From the NCBI GenBank assembly GCA_963666425.2, contig OY762825.2:192001-256000 (forward strand): 64,000 nucleotides of DNA. The letters run 5' to 3'. Below the pieces are notes generated by a model, which was given only the letters and a program-made list of their open reading frames with translations, searched no databases and had not been told where the DNA came from. Both the position numbers and the translations under genes were made by a program. Of this stretch, positions 8,735-58,251 are shown piece by piece. Origin of the DNA: Bacillota bacterium (GTDB lineage Bacteria > Bacillota > JAAYKD01). The first letter of the stretch is position 1. Every line of letters begins with the position of its first letter.

Positions 8735-8820
8735 GCCGGAGTGGCGGAATGGCAGACGCACTTGACTCAAAATCAAGCGTATTTACGTACATGCCGGTTC
8801 AAGTCCGGCCTTCGGCACCA
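8735..8820 (+). tRNA. tRNA-Leu(CAA)
   Basis: GCCGGAG acceptor/CTTCGGC-ACCA, D-loop GGCGGAATGGCAGAC, anticodon arm CTTGA-CTCAAAA-TCAAG, long variable arm, GGTTCAAGTCC. Confidence 0.97.
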
Positions 8821-32508: not shown

Positions 32509-32584
32509 AGGGGAGTAGCTCAATTGGTAGAGTACCGGTCTCCAAAACCGTAGGTTGCGGGTTCGAGTCCCTCCTCCCCTGCCA
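32509..32584 (+). tRNA. tRNA-Trp(CCA)
   Basis: AGGGGAG/CTCCCCT-G-CCA acceptor, AGCTCAATTGGTAGAG D arm, CGGT-CTCCAAA-ACCG anticodon arm, GGTTCGAGTCC. Confidence 0.95.
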
Positions 32585-53924: not shown

Positions 53925-55373
53925 TTATAGGCTGTTCGGGAAATCCTTCCTGAACTGGTACACTAATTTTTCCTGCCAATCCGAGGTTGCTTGCAGACGG
54001 CCAAAGAAGAATCTAAGGTTCTTGGGTTCCTCAACAAAGCGTAAACCGCCCACCAGGTGGCGGTTTTGATGCAGCCAGGCAATGCGGTCAACCGCATATT
54101 TAATCTGCGACAGGGTAAATACCCGTCTTGGCACAGCGAGTCTCAATAATTCCATGGCAGAAAATGTTTCATTCCCAGCCGAATCACGCTGTTCAGACAT
54201 TGTCCCACGTTCCATACCGCGCACTCCGCCGGCAAGATAAAGCGCCGCCGCTAAAGCGCCTGCAGGATATTCCTGTTGTGGAATATGATCGACAAAAGCC
54301 TTTGCATCCAAATGACAACCCAAACCACCCGCTGGTGTCACAACCGGCACACCCCTTTTCACCAGTTCACCGGTCATAAAAGCGATGAATTGCGGTCCCT
54401 GGCTGATCACGTCTTCCTCCATGGTTTCATCCAAACCCACGGTCAGTGCTTCCATTTCGCGCACAGACATGCCGCCATAGGTCAGGAATCCTTCGTATAA
54501 AGTGACTAGTTCGCGCATTTTCAAATAGAGCTCCCGGTCGTGCATGCAAATACCGCCGCCTTTGGCAAAGCCCAATTTGCGAGCCGAGAAATAGGTAATA
54601 TCACAGAGTGAAGCAATTGCCAACGTGATTTCTCGGATGCTCATCGATTTGCACTGCTCTTCCCTTTCCTTCATGAAATGCAGATTATCGGCGAGCAAGC
54701 TGGCATCGAGCACTAAGAGAAGCTGATGTTTGGCACAAACACGCTTGACATCCCGCAGATTGGCCAAGGAGAATGGCTGACCGCCGATCAGATTTGTTCC
54801 TGCTTCCATGCGGACAAAAGCGATTTTCTCACTGCCGTGCAGTGCAATGCAAGTCTCCAGCTTGTCGATATCCATGTTGCCTTTGAATAATTCCTGGCTG
54901 GTTACCTCAGTACCACGATCGGAGAGCAGTTCTTCAACTGTGCCGCCATTCAGCATAATATGGGCTTTGGTCGTCGTAAAATGATAGTTCATCGGTGTGA
55001 TCATGCCAGGTTTAACAAAGACTTGCGCCAGGATATTTTCACAGGCTCTGCCCTGATGCGCTGGCAAGAAAAACTCTGTCCCGAAAATCTGATGGATTTT
55101 TTCTTCCAAACGCACGTACGTTTCACTGCCGGCATAACTGTCGTCAGCCACCATCATGGCACCCAATTGACGATCACTCATGGCATTAACACCGCTGTCG
55201 GTCAACATATCCAAGAATACATCGCGATTATTCAATAGGAACGTATTGTTGCCGGCTTTTTTGATACAAAGCAGTCGTTCCTCAATGGGCAGCAGCTGCA
55301 GTTTCTGTACGATACGGACCTTATGCATCTCCAAGGGAATTTGTTCTCCGCTGAAAAATTGAATGTTTGACAT
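53925..55373 (-). CDS. PLP beta-eliminating lyase of the tryptophanase/tyrosine phenol-lyase family, with TPL-type residues
   Basis: DMLTDSG, DSYAGS, HQGRA.E, HFTTTK, GGQPFS, SARK, YEG..TYGG, MERG, RLA.PRRV, LRFF. Confidence 0.88.
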   Translation of the reverse strand: MSNIQFFSGEQIPLEMHKVRIVQKLQLLPIEERLLCIKKAGNNTFLLNNRDVFLDMLTDSGVNAMSDRQLGAMMVADDSYAGSETYVRLEEKIHQIFGTEFFLPAHQGRACENILAQVFVKPGMITPMNYHFTTTKAHIMLNGGTVEELLSDRGTEVTSQELFKGNMDIDKLETCIALHGSEKIAFVRMEAGTNLIGGQPFSLANLRDVKRVCAKHQLLLVLDASLLADNLHFMKEREEQCKSMSIREITLAIASLCDITYFSARKLGFAKGGGICMHDRELYLKMRELVTLYEGFLTYGGMSVREMEALTVGLDETMEEDVISQGPQFIAFMTGELVKRGVPVVTPAGGLGCHLDAKAFVDHIPQQEYPAGALAAALYLAGGVRGMERGTMSEQRDSAGNETFSAMELLRLAVPRRVFTLSQIKYAVDRIAWLHQNRHLVGGLRFVEEPKNLRFFFGRLQATSDWQEKLVYQFRKDFPNSL

Positions 55374-55472
55374 GAAATTAACCCTCCTTATTTATTTGAT
55401 TGATTTTCTCGTTGATGAAGCTGCAATAATCATAATCGGCTTTCAATTTCATCATCCCTCTCGTCAGAAATT

Positions 55473-55765
55473 AAAAAAACCGTCCTTTGTGTATAAAACT
55501 ATACACAAAGGACGGATAATTCTTCCGTGTTACCACCTTAATTTTTTGACATTTCGCAATGCCAATCTTATCAAGTATCGGCCCAAAGGCGAATACTCTA
55601 GCACGATAACGGATGCAGATTTCCGGCTTAACCTACTAAGGGCAACACCCTGTTCAGCAAGCAGCTCTGAAGATGTATTCGGAATACCATTCCTTGCCCC
55701 TCTCACCTGCCGGTAGCTCTCTGTAAGGAATTATCGTATTCGTACTAGTTCTTCGTCAAAGCCAT
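55473..55765 (-). ncRNA. T-box riboswitch, Tyr specifier (UAC)
   Basis: Minus strand: GA motif, AGTA, AGAGAG bulge, GGTGAGA apical loop, specifier GAA-TAC-A (55677-55675), T-box AATTAAGGTGGTAACACGG (55543-55525), 16-bp terminator stem plus T7 (55515-55473). Confidence 0.92.
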
Positions 55766-55779
55766 TCACAATTTTTACT

Positions 55780-55809
55780 ATAGTAACATTACCGGGTAGA
55801 GTATGTCAA
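55780..55809 (-). promoter_or_regulatory. Sigma-A promoter of the T-box leader
   Basis: TTGACA-18 bp-TACTAT with TGn extension. Confidence 0.75.
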
Positions 55810-55902: not shown

Positions 55903-56553
55903 TTATTCGTTATTCCTATGATCTCCGGTAATAGCGAATTCAACCCATTCAGCAATATTAACCGAATGATCGCCGATGCGTTCGAAATATTTCGCAATCA
56001 TCAGCAAATCGAGCGCTTGTCTTCCCTTTTCCGGAGCAGTCGTGATGATACCAATCAATTCTTTTTTGATGGTATCGAATAAATCATCAACAATATCATC
56101 CATTTCCATGACTTCCAGTGCAAGTGCTAAATCTCTTTTGACAAACGCATCGATGCTTTTATTGACCATTTTTATCGTTTCTGCTGCCATCAGCGGTAAA
56201 TGTTCAATTTTTTTAATATAAGGCTCATCAGCCAGGTAAACGATGATTTCGGAAATATCCCTCGCCTGGTCGCCGATGCGTTCCATATCCGTAATCATTT
56301 TTAAGGCGGCTGAAATAAACCGCAGGTCTTTCGCCACCGGCTGCTGCTGTAATAAGAGCTTCAGACAGAGATTCTCAATATGGCGCTCCTTTTCATTGAT
56401 ATCCACTTCGAAAGCAATTGTTTTGTTTGCTTCCTCAACGTTTTTCTGCAGCAAGGCGTTTGAAGTACTTTGAATCGAATTTTCAATCATTGACCCCATT
56501 TCAATCAGCTCGGTGTTCAATAGGTCCAGTTGCTCGTCAAATTTCGTTCGCAT
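55903..56553 (-). CDS. phoU: Phosphate signalling protein PhoU
   Basis: QQPVAKDLR, TDMERIGD, DDIVD, YFERIGDH.VNIAEW. Confidence 0.96.
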   Translation of the reverse strand: MRTKFDEQLDLLNTELIEMGSMIENSIQSTSNALLQKNVEEANKTIAFEVDINEKERHIENLCLKLLLQQQPVAKDLRFISAALKMITDMERIGDQARDISEIIVYLADEPYIKKIEHLPLMAAETIKMVNKSIDAFVKRDLALALEVMEMDDIVDDLFDTIKKELIGIITTAPEKGRQALDLLMIAKYFERIGDHSVNIAEWVEFAITGDHRNNE

Positions 56554-56642
56554 CAGTAAAAACCCCTCTTCCTAATTTTTTCTTTGCAATGATCAATATT
56601 AACCGGTTATTATTGGTATGACGAAGCTTCCCGGTAGTCTGT

Positions 56643-57404
56643 TTAGCCAAATCTTCCGGTAATATAATCACTTGTCCGCTGATCCTTGGGATTGGCAAAA
56701 ACCTCTTCGGTAAGACCCTCTTCAATCAGATTGCCCATCAGCATAAAGGCGACTCTATCTGCGATACGTGCTGCCTGCTGCACTGTATGGGGTGCGATAA
56801 TAATGGTATACTGCTCCTTCAATTGCCTTAAAGAGTCCTCGATTTTTGAGGTTGAGACCGGATCAAGGGCTGAACAGGGCCGGTCCAGTAAGATAATCTC
56901 CGGTTCCAGCGCCAAGACACGAGCAATACAAAGACGTTGCTGCTGTCCTCCGGATAACCTGGTTGCCGGTGTATGCAGCCGATCTTTCACTTCATCCCAG
57001 AGTGCAGCCATGCGGAGCGCCTGTTCTGCTTTTTCAGCCAAAACCGCATTGCTTTTCAATCCGAGCATACGGGGACCCAGGGCGATATTATCAAAGATGG
57101 ACATCGGAAGTGAAGTTGGTACATCAAAGACCATGCCCACTTTTCGCCGTAATTCGGTGACATTAACCTCGGGAGAGAAAATACTCTTGCCATCGATCAG
57201 GATCTCACCCGTCCTGTGCGCATTGAGGCTCAAATCGCTGAGCCGATTAAGCGTGCGGAGCAGGGTCGTAATGCCGCTGTTCGCCGGTCCGAAAATCGCT
57301 AGAATTTCATTGGCCTGGATCTCCAGACTAAGGTTCTGGATCGCTTGATTCTTTGCATAATAAAAATTCAATTCCTTAATTGCTATTTTAGCCTGTTGAA
57401 TCAT
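56643..57404 (-). CDS. pstB: Phosphate ABC ATP-binding subunit with degenerate Walker A/Q-loop/Walker B
   Basis: PstB-specific LWDEVKDRL and RTSDYITGRFG; LSGGQ intact; GPANSGIT, VFDVP, LLDRP. Confidence 0.9.
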   Translation of the reverse strand: MIQQAKIAIKELNFYYAKNQAIQNLSLEIQANEILAIFGPANSGITTLLRTLNRLSDLSLNAHRTGEILIDGKSIFSPEVNVTELRRKVGMVFDVPTSLPMSIFDNIALGPRMLGLKSNAVLAEKAEQALRMAALWDEVKDRLHTPATRLSGGQQQRLCIARVLALEPEIILLDRPCSALDPVSTSKIEDSLRQLKEQYTIIIAPHTVQQAARIADRVAFMLMGNLIEEGLTEEVFANPKDQRTSDYITGRFG

Positions 57405-57414
57405 TTTTCACCTC

Positions 57415-58251
57415 TTAACGACCTTTCGATACGAAACGATCGACCAGCATATTGAAGACAACATTGATCAGAAAGATCAGAATCATTAACAGCGCTGCGG
57501 TAGCGTAGGCATTCTCCATGGATAAACCTTCTCGTGCCAGGATGTAGAAATGCACCGCCATGGTTCGGGTCGGTGAAAAGAGCGAAGTTGGCATGCGTAA
57601 GGCAGATCCGGCTGTTAAGATAACAGCGGCTGTTTCGGATACACAGCGACCAATGCTGAGGATGATGCCATTGGCAATTCCCGGTAAAGCAGATGGAATG
57701 ACCGTTTTGGTGATGGTCTGCCATTTGGAGGCTCCCAAAGAAAAACCAACTTCCCGATAGAGATTTGGAACTGTCCGGATTGCTTCTTCCGAGGTGCGAA
57801 TGATGGTTGGCAAAATCATGATTGCCATGGTTAACCCTCCTGAGAGAATCGACCATCCCATATGAAGGTAAGTTACAAAAAAGATAAAACCAAAAAGTCC
57901 AAAAACAATTGAAGGAATTCCGGCCAGCGATTCAGCGCTGAACCGGATCACACGTGTAATTTTACTCTCGCGCGTATACTCGGTAAGATAAATTGCCGTG
58001 CCGATGCCAAAGGGTGTAGCGATCAGGACAGCGACAGCGGTTACCAACAACGTACCAACAATAGATGAAGAAATACCGCCGGAGCGTCCCATATTGCGCG
58101 GAATTTCCGTTAAGAATTGCCAGCTGAGAGCCGGTAAGCCCTTCAGAAGAATATCTCCGATGATCGCAAGAAGAATCACGATGACTAGAAGGGCGGCTGA
58201 CCAGATAACAAATTTTGCTATTTTTTGACTGGTTCGCGGATTAATCTTCAT
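57415..58251 (-). CDS. pstA: Phosphate ABC permease PstA
   Basis: GGISSSIVGT, AIYLTEY, LAGIPSIVFGLFG, LGASKWQT, ETA. Confidence 0.93.
   Translation of the reverse strand: MKINPRTSQKIAKFVIWSAALLVIVILLAIIGDILLKGLPALSWQFLTEIPRNMGRSGGISSSIVGTLLVTAVAVLIATPFGIGTAIYLTEYTRESKITRVIRFSAESLAGIPSIVFGLFGFIFFVTYLHMGWSILSGGLTMAIMILPTIIRTSEEAIRTVPNLYREVGFSLGASKWQTITKTVIPSALPGIANGIILSIGRCVSETAAVILTAGSALRMPTSLFSPTRTMAVHFYILAREGLSMENAYATAALLMILIFLINVVFNMLVDRFVSKGR

Follow-up and report, generated by a model that had tools for sequence, protein, structure and literature searches.

In the genome of a Bacillota bacterium, a gene for an enzyme of the tyrosine phenol-lyase (TPL)/tryptophanase family stands behind a T-box riboswitch with a tyrosine specifier. 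The riboswitch anatomy, the specifier, the recurrence of this pairing at orthologous loci, the TPL-type pocket of the enzyme and the lack of the corresponding biosynthetic genes are shown in this study. The reading that we prefer, with moderate confidence, is that of a tyrosine-starvation-induced enzyme forming tyrosine from phenol, in which both the substrate and the direction of the reaction are inferred. An earlier note, made from the sequence of the analysed window (a stretch of 64,000 nucleotides), had suggested that the enzyme may make tyrosine from environmental phenol. This interpretation is supported by computation and all computational checks proposed there came out as predicted, with phenol and the synthetic direction remaining inferences.

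The leader was identified in an Rfam cmscan search of the whole window as a T-box (RF00230) located on the minus strand at positions 55505-55768, with a score of 101.0 bits (E 4.2e-21; gathering score of 93 bits) and a match spanning model positions 1-219 of 219. It is composed of Stem I with the specifier loop, the Stem II/IIA-B region, Stem III and the antiterminator. In the covariance model (CM) alignment, the specifier codon UAC (Tyr) occupies positions 55675-55677 (minus strand) and is preceded by GAA and followed by A (GAA-UAC-A), i.e. a codon with a purine next to it, as expected of T-boxes. The T-box bulge (GGUGGUAAC), read from the CM alignment and the sequence, contains UGGU (55532-55535, minus strand), which is complementary to the ACCA-3' end of tRNA-Tyr, and the antiterminator AAGGUGGUAACACGG consists of 4 bp, a 7-nt bulge and 5 bp according to the CM structure line. 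Folding revealed an intrinsic terminator (55473-55515, minus strand) with a 16-bp stem (55480-55515), a 4-nt loop and seven U (centroid -28.2 kcal/mol, minimum free energy -29.9, z = -6.1; equalled by none of 200 shuffles), whose 5' arm shares sequence with the 3' arm of the antiterminator, the two being competing folds. With the UGGU bulge, the UAC codon and the competing terminator and antiterminator, the leader therefore meets the criteria of the T-box family, read-through by tRNA being inferred. Directly 5' of the T-box lies a sigma-70-like promoter (55780-55809, minus strand; TTGACA, 18 nt, TACTAT, with TG before the -10) conforming to 10 of the 12 consensus positions. The leader is a canonical full-length transcriptional T-box with its own promoter-like site (the latter recognized by consensus match only), and the claim of the earlier note in this respect (a canonical T-box with UAC and UGGU) held on the RF00230 match, the CM alignment and the terminator.

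As a control for the codon position, the same aligned position was read in 10 other T-boxes of the host genome with annotated downstream genes. The codon suited the downstream gene in 9 cases: tyrS twice (UAC), trpB and TrpX (UGG), pheS (UUC), asnS and asnA (AAC), serS (UCC) and a MetN-like ATPase (AUG). In the tenth, CAC stands before the gene of a polar-amino-acid-binding protein, a combination that agrees with the assignment without proving it. The only other UAC T-boxes of the genome are those ahead of the two tyrS paralogues. The Tyr specifier of the leader is thereby shown, and its specificity for tRNA-Tyr is inferred from sequence, without read-through data. The additional claim that UGGU pairs with the A73 discriminator of tRNA-Tyr, the tRNA-Trp of the window having G73, was correct as to the bases (both tRNA-Tyr(GUA) genes of the genome have A73). 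It is nevertheless a weak argument that cannot separate Tyr from Trp in this genome, because both Trp T-boxes also carry UGGU and one tyrS T-box carries UGGC.

The downstream gene (53925-55373, minus strand), assigned by profile searches and alignments, encodes a 482-aa PLP enzyme and is preceded by a Shine-Dalgarno sequence (AAGGAGG, 55383-55389, minus strand) placed 9 nt 5' of the ATG at 55371-55373. It is present in a single copy in the genome and, since it is flanked by a convergent PHP-domain gene downstream and by pst-phoU genes upstream, it is monocistronic. The protein passes the thresholds of Pfam PF01212 Beta_elim_lyase (165.1 bits, cut-off 27) and of NF009709 (PRK13238, TPL/tryptophanase subfamily; 586.6 bits, cut-off 285). 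It falls below both equivalog cut-offs, namely TIGR02618 for TPL (435.7 versus 720.7 bits; the canonical TPL representative P0137 scores 733 bits) and TIGR02617 for tryptophanase (338.8 versus 825.8 bits). Its closest solved relatives are TPLs (9j3u, 391.6 bits; 1tpl, 379 bits), to which it is approximately 45% identical as read off the alignments. The enzyme shares superfamily with tryptophanase (TnaA), and NF009709 gives it that name. The expectation that such proteins would be auto-annotated as tryptophanases held for close homologues in NCBI sources, while some of those in JGI are named tyrosine phenol-lyase.

The enzyme differs from tryptophanase at three specificity positions, which are TPL-type, as had been claimed: its FTTT, MERG and LRFF motifs align (HMMER) with T124, R381 and F448 of Citrobacter freundii TPL, where tryptophanase-type representatives have D, I/L/V and H, respectively. 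T, R and F are found in 120 of 120 clade members and the tryptophanase-type residues in none. With TPL (EC 4.1.99.2; C. freundii, Erwinia herbicola) the enzyme has in common the PF01212 fold and family, the residues K257 (PLP lysine), D214, N185, Y71 and R404, and the whole phenol pocket (T124, R381, F448, F449, M379, F36 and F123); all of these but F36 (119/120) are kept in 120/120 members. What separates it from TPL, besides the equivalog score, is residues 461-482, which run beyond the end of the alignments to solved TPL chains, and a set of clade-invariant changes. These are R217L and K256R at the PLP site (120/120 members; L226 and R265 in the numbering of the present protein) as well as T216S, T53V, G101A and M288F (C. 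freundii numbering). Among 29 comparison rows, the 8 tryptophanase-type rows and the one canonical TPL row all have R and K at positions 217 and 256, which we take to be PLP-site residues; nothing on the roles of Arg217 and Lys256 was found in the literature searched, including two TPL papers. The clade is tight (65-94% identity), and in the family tree it groups on the side of the TPLs. No characterized member was found in the literature searched, nor were biochemical or expression data for any member. We conclude that the enzyme represents a distinct, highly conserved clade of the TPL family and is not a canonical TPL, its R217L and K256R changes having gone unseen in the earlier note; its activity is inferred.

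Homologues of the enzyme were examined for the presence of a T-box in two sets, which share some genomes. In the first set, a T-box lies directly upstream at 23 of 80 orthologous loci (in one of them as two tandem Tyr T-boxes), the specifier being UAC in all 23; Rfam was re-run on 20 of these and each exceeded the gathering score. For the second set, 401 genomes were sampled evenly across the phylum, and an orthologue (at least 65% identity) is present in 53 of them. Here a T-box precedes 26 of the 53, with UAC in 25 and UGC at the specifier position of the odd one (locus L173). The upstream recurrence of UAC T-boxes suggested as a check was thus found. No T-box was detected at 30 canonical TPL loci of the same sample (at least 720.7 bits, with 1,400 nt or more of upstream sequence for each), at five loci of a sister clade (52-53% identity), or at any orthologous locus in records named for other phyla, and fifteen Bacillota-type loci without an nhmmer match gave no RF00230 hit when re-run through Rfam. 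In loci L059 and L054, a putative ORF of 180 aa located between T-box and enzyme gene was rejected as a repeat-rich non-coding insert. Clustering of ORFs from 81 loci revealed no neighbour recurring in more than four, apart from a GC-rich antisense artefact, so neither an operon partner nor a conserved phenol-handling neighbour exists among these loci. Members of the clade also occur in records named for purple phototrophs, Campylobacterota and others. Going by record names, most carriers seem to be anaerobes and many seem to be amino-acid fermenters. It is possible that the role of the family is not uniform across carriers, because roughly half of the orthologues sampled in the phylum (27/53) have no T-box and most of those genomes possess TyrA.

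The host genome (98.5% complete) has no recognisable genes for the final reactions leading to Tyr, Phe or Trp. Prephenate dehydrogenase (PDH_N, PDH_C), prephenate dehydratase (PDT), IGPS (TrpC), TrpA and UbiD were not found in it, tblastn searches (queries: three TyrA and one PDT protein) gave a best E of 0.24, and chorismate synthase is present; the absence of tyrA, another suggested check, was thus borne out. The missing UbiD-type decarboxylase also means that no endogenous source of phenol of this kind was found in the genome. A lone trpB sits behind a UGG (Trp) T-box and follows the same salvage logic, for indole. Across the sample, no TyrA was detected in 16 of the 26 genomes with the T-box (all 16 of them also without IGPS; TyrA is present in the other 10), in 5 of the 27 that have an orthologue but no T-box and in 80 of the 348 with no orthologue. 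The association of the T-box with TyrA loss gives a raw Fisher p of 0.002, which ignores kinship. This value is overstated because the association is not phylogenetically independent: T-box status requires only 3 changes on the gene tree, and there are only 1-3 independent contrasts.

In the proposed mechanism, when tRNA-Tyr is mostly charged, the 16-bp terminator would form and transcription would end ahead of the enzyme gene. Uncharged tRNA-Tyr would pair through its GUA anticodon with UAC and through its free ACCA end with UGGU, which would stabilize the antiterminator and allow the 482-aa enzyme to be made. The physiological task of the enzyme would be to raise the tyrosine pool, and known T-box-controlled genes (for synthetases, biosynthesis and uptake) raise the supply of charged tRNA. 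The enzyme is predicted to join phenol from the surroundings to a three-carbon amino-acid unit, either pyruvate plus ammonium (the lyase reaction reversed) or aminoacrylate derived from serine (beta-replacement), the latter being the tyrosine counterpart of the action of TrpB on indole. For the host, this would be a salvage route beside uptake. Which way the reaction runs, that phenol is the substrate and what serves as three-carbon donor are all inferred.

TPL is reversible and also performs beta-replacement (PMC10170061). The catabolic gene tpl is switched on by tyrosine via TyrR and CRP (PMC10170061), whereas the leader described here senses starvation and precedes an enzyme for which synthesis, not breakdown, is proposed. 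The presence of the T-box before members of this clade and at 0/30 canonical TPL loci therefore indicates regulation opposite to that of tyrosine-induced, TyrR-activated tpl, and this supports what had been claimed of T-box control versus substrate induction. The Km values of canonical TPL in the synthetic direction are 12 mM for pyruvate, 20 mM for NH3 and 1.1 mM for phenol (PMC10170061), so salvage at environmental phenol concentrations would need a better enzyme or serine as a donor. In the literature searched, no paper pairs a T-box with tyrosine phenol-lyase or tryptophanase (regulon tables or T-box databases may list such a case), and nothing relevant was found on TPL in tyrosine auxotrophy or on the reverse reaction in anaerobes. 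As for TPL in Rhodobacter capsulatus, only one RNA-seq table was found there, in which rcc00516 'tpl' is lower in the RegA comparison (PMC5359404).

Several known systems resemble the one proposed. Stand-alone TrpB (indole salvage, Trp T-box) is likewise a PLP enzyme that adds an aromatic head group to a three-carbon unit, is switched on by its cognate uncharged tRNA and works where the rest of the pathway is missing (no TrpA, no IGPS); a trpB of this kind is present in the host genome itself. However, TrpB has fold-type II and no kinship with TPL, and it is an established synthetic enzyme, while the synthetic role of the TPL-like enzyme is inferred. The phenylalanine-4-hydroxylase of the Bacillus cereus group, which converts phenylalanine to tyrosine and is T-box-regulated (PMC2494555), provides a T-box-controlled route to tyrosine other than the prephenate pathway, but it belongs to another enzyme family, uses phenylalanine as the precursor and needs oxygen. 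The leader of tyrS, the founding T-box, shares the RNA family, the UAC specifier and the terminator/antiterminator switch, and differs in that its downstream gene encodes a synthetase rather than a lyase-family enzyme. The tnaA gene is known to be tryptophan-induced through the TnaC leader peptide.

A bolder version of the preferred reading may also be considered, although we would sooner bet against it than for it. It holds that the clade is a dedicated 'tyrosine synthase' acting on phenol and serine, a fold-type I counterpart of TrpB, in which a lyase was converted by the invariant R217L/K256R changes. The enzyme would be the only endogenous route to tyrosine in the many anaerobes that are without TyrA and the remainder of aromatic biosynthesis, and the phenol, cross-fed from tyrosine-fermenting neighbours, would be both depended on and removed from the habitat.

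Among the rival explanations, the one that survives best, yet is unlikely, is that the gene does serve tyrosine supply, with something other than free phenol as its starting material. The ring could come from another donor such as a para-substituted phenol (e.g. 4-hydroxybenzoate) that loses its substituent, the three-carbon donor could be O-acetylserine or cysteine, or the altered PLP site could enable a different step of tyrosine metabolism. Given the failed equivalog cut-off and the loss of R217 and K256, the enzyme may indeed catalyse something other than TPL chemistry. That failure and the presence of R217L, K256R, T216S and M288F in 120/120 members speak against a standard TPL, the identity of 65-81% across several phyla suggests a tightly constrained, specific function, and the high synthetic Km values of canonical TPL point the same way. 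Against this rival, the residues for the phenol hydroxyl and ring (T124, R381, F448, F449, M379 and F36) are kept, and there is neither a UbiD-type decarboxylase in the host genome nor a conserved partner gene. The chemistry is speculative and, to our knowledge, without precedent.

A second alternative, which we regard as very unlikely, is that the enzyme clears an analogue or antimetabolite of tyrosine (for instance one with a modified ring) that inhibits tyrosyl-tRNA synthetase; uncharged tRNA-Tyr would build up as a result, be sensed by the T-box and thereby switch on a detoxifying lyase. In its favour, a T-box reports charging and not tyrosine as such, and the host genome keeps two T-box-controlled tyrS paralogues; paired tyrS genes are seen where one paralogue is more selective, and TPL-family enzymes accept ring-substituted tyrosines. 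On the other hand, nothing points to the existence of such a compound, a supply role accords better with the enrichment in genomes that lack TyrA and IGPS, and, with its tyrosine pocket intact, the lyase would also break down tyrosine that is already scarce. Equally hard to sustain is an ordinary catabolic TPL, or a tryptophanase as annotated, with an incidental or otherwise purposed T-box: family membership (NF009709), the identity to solved TPLs, the many apparent amino-acid fermenters among carriers and the orthologues without a T-box favour it, but switching on a tyrosine-destroying enzyme under tyrosine starvation would be counter-productive, the T-box is kept at 23 and 26 loci of the overlapping sets and absent from 30/30 canonical TPL loci, D124, I/L/V381 and H448 occur in 0/120 members, and catabolic tpl is tyrosine-induced through TyrR.

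If the preferred reading, i.e. starvation-induced formation of tyrosine from phenol, is true, a family treated as catabolic holds a widespread clade (53 of 401 sampled genomes of the phylum) that works physiologically in the synthetic direction, and in metabolic models its carriers would cease to count as mere tyrosine auxotrophs. Phenol, from which a uraemic toxin is formed (PMC11259132), would become a nutrient supplied by cross-feeding, with the organisms that consume it acting as a phenol sink in anaerobic digesters and guts. The clade would also be a natural starting point for biocatalysts making tyrosine analogues at low substrate concentrations, and the R217L/K256R pair is a candidate for tipping a beta-eliminating lyase towards synthesis.

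The finding is a single transcription unit on the minus strand of the window (G000:C1:192001-256000), in which a 482-aa PLP enzyme of the tyrosine phenol-lyase (TPL)/tryptophanase family with an intact tyrosine/phenol pocket is under the control of a canonically built T-box that is specific for tyrosine and acts by terminating transcription. The unit comprises a consensus-type promoter-like site (TTGACA, 18 nt, TACTAT; 55780-55809), a full-length T-box leader (55505-55768; Rfam RF00230 at 101.0 bits, gathering score 93, E-value 4.2e-21, model positions 1-219 of 219), an intrinsic terminator whose 16-bp stem (55480-55515) is followed by seven U (centroid energy -28.2 kcal/mol, z = -6.1; none of 200 shuffles folds as well), and a Shine-Dalgarno sequence (AAGGAGG) ahead of the open reading frame (53925-55373), all on the minus strand. 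The antiterminator has a 7-nt bulge containing UGGU, preceded by 4 bp and followed by 5 bp, and its 3' arm is the 5' arm of the terminator; from sequence alone, this layout is predicted to be of the canonical type for read-through with uncharged tRNA. Directly upstream of the promoter lie genes for PhoU, an ABC ATPase and a permease (55903-58251, minus strand), a pst-phoU-type phosphate uptake cluster. Since these genes are of that type and the PHP-domain gene 3' of the enzyme gene is convergent, the latter stands alone behind its leader.

In the covariance model alignment, GAA-UAC-A falls in the specifier loop, with the UAC codon at 55675-55677 (minus strand). The codon position was checked by aligning the 18 RF00230 matches of the host genome, ten of which, besides that of the enzyme, precede annotated genes. 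The aligned codon suits the downstream gene in nine of these ten: two tyrS (UAC), trpB and a TrpX-type binding protein (UGG), pheS (UUC), asnS and asnA (AAC), serS (UCC) and a MetN-like ATPase (AUG). The remaining leader has CAC and precedes a polar-amino-acid-binding protein, a combination that is compatible without being diagnostic. The host's three UAC T-boxes precede the TPL-like gene and two tyrS paralogues (403 and 411 aa), which each have their own leader (G000:C1:1830374-1831913 and C1:2144833-2146372). The earlier note had also invoked pairing of the UGGU bulge with the discriminator base of tRNA-Tyr (A73; G73 in tRNA-Trp); this is true but weak, because both host Trp T-boxes likewise read UGGU and one tyrS T-box carries UGGC despite A73 in tRNA-Tyr. 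The window also carries genes for tRNA-Leu(CAA) (8735-8820, plus strand) and tRNA-Trp(CCA, G73) (32509-32584, plus strand).

The enzyme matches PF01212 (Pfam) and passed the NCBIfam 'tryptophanase' subfamily NF009709 (586.6 bits, cut-off 285), and it failed both the TPL equivalog TIGR02618 (435.7 bits, cut-off 720.7) and the tryptophanase equivalog TIGR02617 (338.8 bits, cut-off 825.8). Its closest solved structures are TPLs (9j3u, 391.6 bits; 1tpl, 379 bits), with tryptophanases at 306 bits and below. Residue numbers of C. freundii TPL were transferred via alignment to solved TPLs, and the best 120 homologues (72-94% identical to the enzyme) were compared with 29 representatives of other clades. 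Residues Y71, F123, T124, N185, D214, K257, M379, R381, R404, F448 and F449 are kept in 120/120 family members, and F36 in 119. The proposal that positions 124, 381 and 448 are of the TPL type therefore held: they are T, R and F throughout the family, and D, I/L/V and H in tryptophanase-type representatives. What the earlier note had missed is a set of six changes invariant in the clade (120/120), namely T53 to V, G101 to A, T216 to S, R217 to L, K256 to R and M288 to F. In the residue comparison, the canonical TPL row and all eight tryptophanase-type rows have R/K at positions 217 and 256; P0128, the closest outgroup of full length (48% identity), has M and R there. R217 is known as the partner of the cofactor O3' and K256 as the neighbour of the PLP lysine, roles for which no confirmation was found in the literature searched.

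A quick FastTree tree, in which P0137 (733 bits) served to label canonical TPL and P0162 (799.9 bits) the tryptophanase-like type, placed the family on the TPL side, within a well-supported 19-row clade. Source names, available for part of the 120 homologues only, include Negativicutes, Tissierella, Clostridia, Peptococcales, Thermoanaerobacterales, Sulfurospirillaceae, Aliarcobacter, Brachymonas, Ramlibacter and Competibacteraceae; Rhodobacter, Rhodovulum, Thiocapsa and Rhodocyclus are among the further names in the titles of locus records. The homologues are named 'tryptophanase' by NCBI and, for some, 'tyrosine phenol-lyase' by JGI. Several more distant proteins (P0122, P0124-P0127, P0132-P0134, P0138, P0139 and P0147; 847-928 aa, 31-37% identity to the enzyme) show two matched stretches and, judged by sequence only, may be tandem double TPL-like domains.

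The pairing of T-box and enzyme is kept in several coded families of the phylum and is absent from canonical TPL genes. Among 80 orthologous loci from one-genome-per-species contigs (Set A), an nhmmer profile built from the host's own 18 T-boxes revealed a T-box upstream of the orthologue (same strand, 39-890 nt away) in 23, all with the specifier UAC (as GAAUACA, AAAUACA or CAAUACA); when 20 of these were re-run with Rfam, all exceeded the gathering score (94-137 bits). Five loci had <300 nt upstream and were not assessable; one of these five had a possible T-box end at the contig edge. No T-box was found at Set A loci titled Proteobacteria, Campylobacterota or other phyla, and at 15 Bacillota-type loci that have long gaps upstream and lack an nhmmer match, Rfam found no RF00230 either. 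Among 401 genomes sampled evenly from the phylum (Set B, sharing some genomes with Set A), 53 carried the orthologue at >=65% identity, 26 of them behind a T-box. The specifier was plain UAC in 24 of the 26, AAU-UAC-A with one extra base in L175, and GAA-UGC-A (a Cys codon) in L173 (G407:C4:10740-13190; T-box ~51-330 nt upstream). A locus of the same genus as L173 (L142) has GAA-UAC-A, and the UGC could mark a genuine switch of specificity or have arisen by drift or through an error in assembly. Canonical TPLs (>=720.7 bits) occurred in 31 Set B genomes; 30 of their loci were returned, all with >=1,400 nt of upstream sequence, and none had a T-box even at an E-value of 1, with both positive controls detected. 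Five sister-clade loci (52-53% identity; one with just 288 nt upstream) had none either. The T-box therefore tracks the clade, not TPL-like genes generally.

Some loci show further upstream features. A tandem pair of Tyr (UAC) T-boxes precedes the orthologue at L051:1412-2202, the second alone reaching the Rfam gathering score. Elsewhere (L059:3400-3970 and L054:700-1030), T-box and orthologue are separated by 300-600 nt of inserted DNA that is rich in repeats and apparently non-coding, and whose frames give repeated peptide-like strings. Bacillota-type orthologues without a T-box (L035, L037, L041, L048, L049, L061, L062, L072, L074, L076, L082, L083, L085 and L089) are still preceded by 300-650 nt of non-coding DNA that lacks any Rfam match and possibly houses another, undescribed control element.

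The pairing occurs, among others, in genomes unable to make tyrosine by the known route. Whole-genome family searches of the host (98.5% complete, 6.9% contamination) found chorismate synthase and none of PDH_N, PDH_C, PDT, IGPS, TrpA or UbiD, each of which was detected in 9 to 14 of 14 control genomes. A tblastn search of the host with one PDT and three TyrA proteins of the same phylum (the latter matching each other at 1e-51 to 1e-79) gave nothing better than an E-value of 0.24. The host does carry a stand-alone trpB (TIGR00263, 605 bits) with a UGG T-box immediately ahead of it (G000:C1:2069997-2071643, outside the window); its second Trp T-box precedes the TrpX-type binding protein. With no TrpA and no IGPS, this trpB is usable only for making tryptophan from indole and serine, an inferred salvage arrangement parallel to the TPL-like gene, which by analogy would be its exact tyrosine counterpart.

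In Set A, TyrA (full-length-type match, E-value 1e-20 or better) was missing in 12/23 T-box-bearing genomes versus 1/57 others, the single exception (L080) having a cut upstream region; one further genome had TyrA only as a contig-edge fragment. The PDT search was limited to the first 50 genomes, of which nine lacked it, all of these T-box-bearing and TyrA-less. In Set B, TyrA was present in 300/401 genomes and not found in 16/26 with orthologue and T-box, 5/27 with the orthologue alone and 80/348 without it. Those 16 genomes, spread over six families by their coded labels, all lack IGPS as well, and four, the host included, keep trpB. A raw Fisher test (p = 0.002) overstates the association, as it ignores kinship: on the gene tree, T-box status needs just three changes, leaving 1-3 independent contrasts, too few for a test. 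The link between T-box and TyrA loss is therefore only suggestive, and the host's own state is the firm fact. In the genome of L028, where the orthologue has a Tyr T-box, a short PDH_N fragment that contains an internal TAA (G010:C68:3680-4599) adjoins an intact PDT gene and is possibly a decaying tyrA.

T-boxes turn on genes that restore charged tRNA, and T-box control has a precedent in the Phe-4-hydroxylase of the B. cereus group (PMC2494555). In contrast to this starvation-type control, canonical tpl is tyrosine-induced via TyrR (PMC10170061). We regard the regulatory logic as very likely: tyrosine shortage would switch on the enzyme. That tyrosine would then be formed from phenol is favoured by a narrower margin, and no assay supports it. 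TPL chemistry is reversible, including beta-replacement (PMC10170061). Phenol diffuses across membranes, and in anaerobic habitats such as those of these records the fermentation of tyrosine commonly ends in it. Canonical TPL has Km values for synthesis of 12 mM pyruvate, 20 mM NH3 and 1.1 mM phenol (PMC10170061), which makes serine attractive as the three-carbon donor, and likewise an enzyme improved by the PLP-site changes of the clade; we hypothesize that either or both apply.

The best-surviving alternative, still unlikely, keeps the tyrosine-supply role and assumes either that the ring or the three carbons come from another donor, or that the altered PLP site permits a different chemistry. 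Less plausible still are a role in clearing a tyrosine analogue that interferes with charging, and ordinary catabolism with an incidental T-box; the rest of the probability is assigned to no particular reading. The main points against the phenol-to-tyrosine reading are the lack of an assay of any kind, the failed TPL equivalog test, the one UGC specifier, the T-box-less orthologues in TyrA-bearing genomes and the ten T-box-bearing genomes with TyrA. Both parts, T-box and TPL-family enzyme, are of already known kinds. The literature searched holds no report of a distinct TPL clade that carries invariant modifications and is governed by a Tyr T-box; that search did not extend to the principal T-box survey or to any supplementary tables, so the gene may already be listed, without comment, in a regulon table. 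For these bacteria, the combination of such a TPL clade with a Tyr T-box would imply physiological synthesis of tyrosine from phenol.
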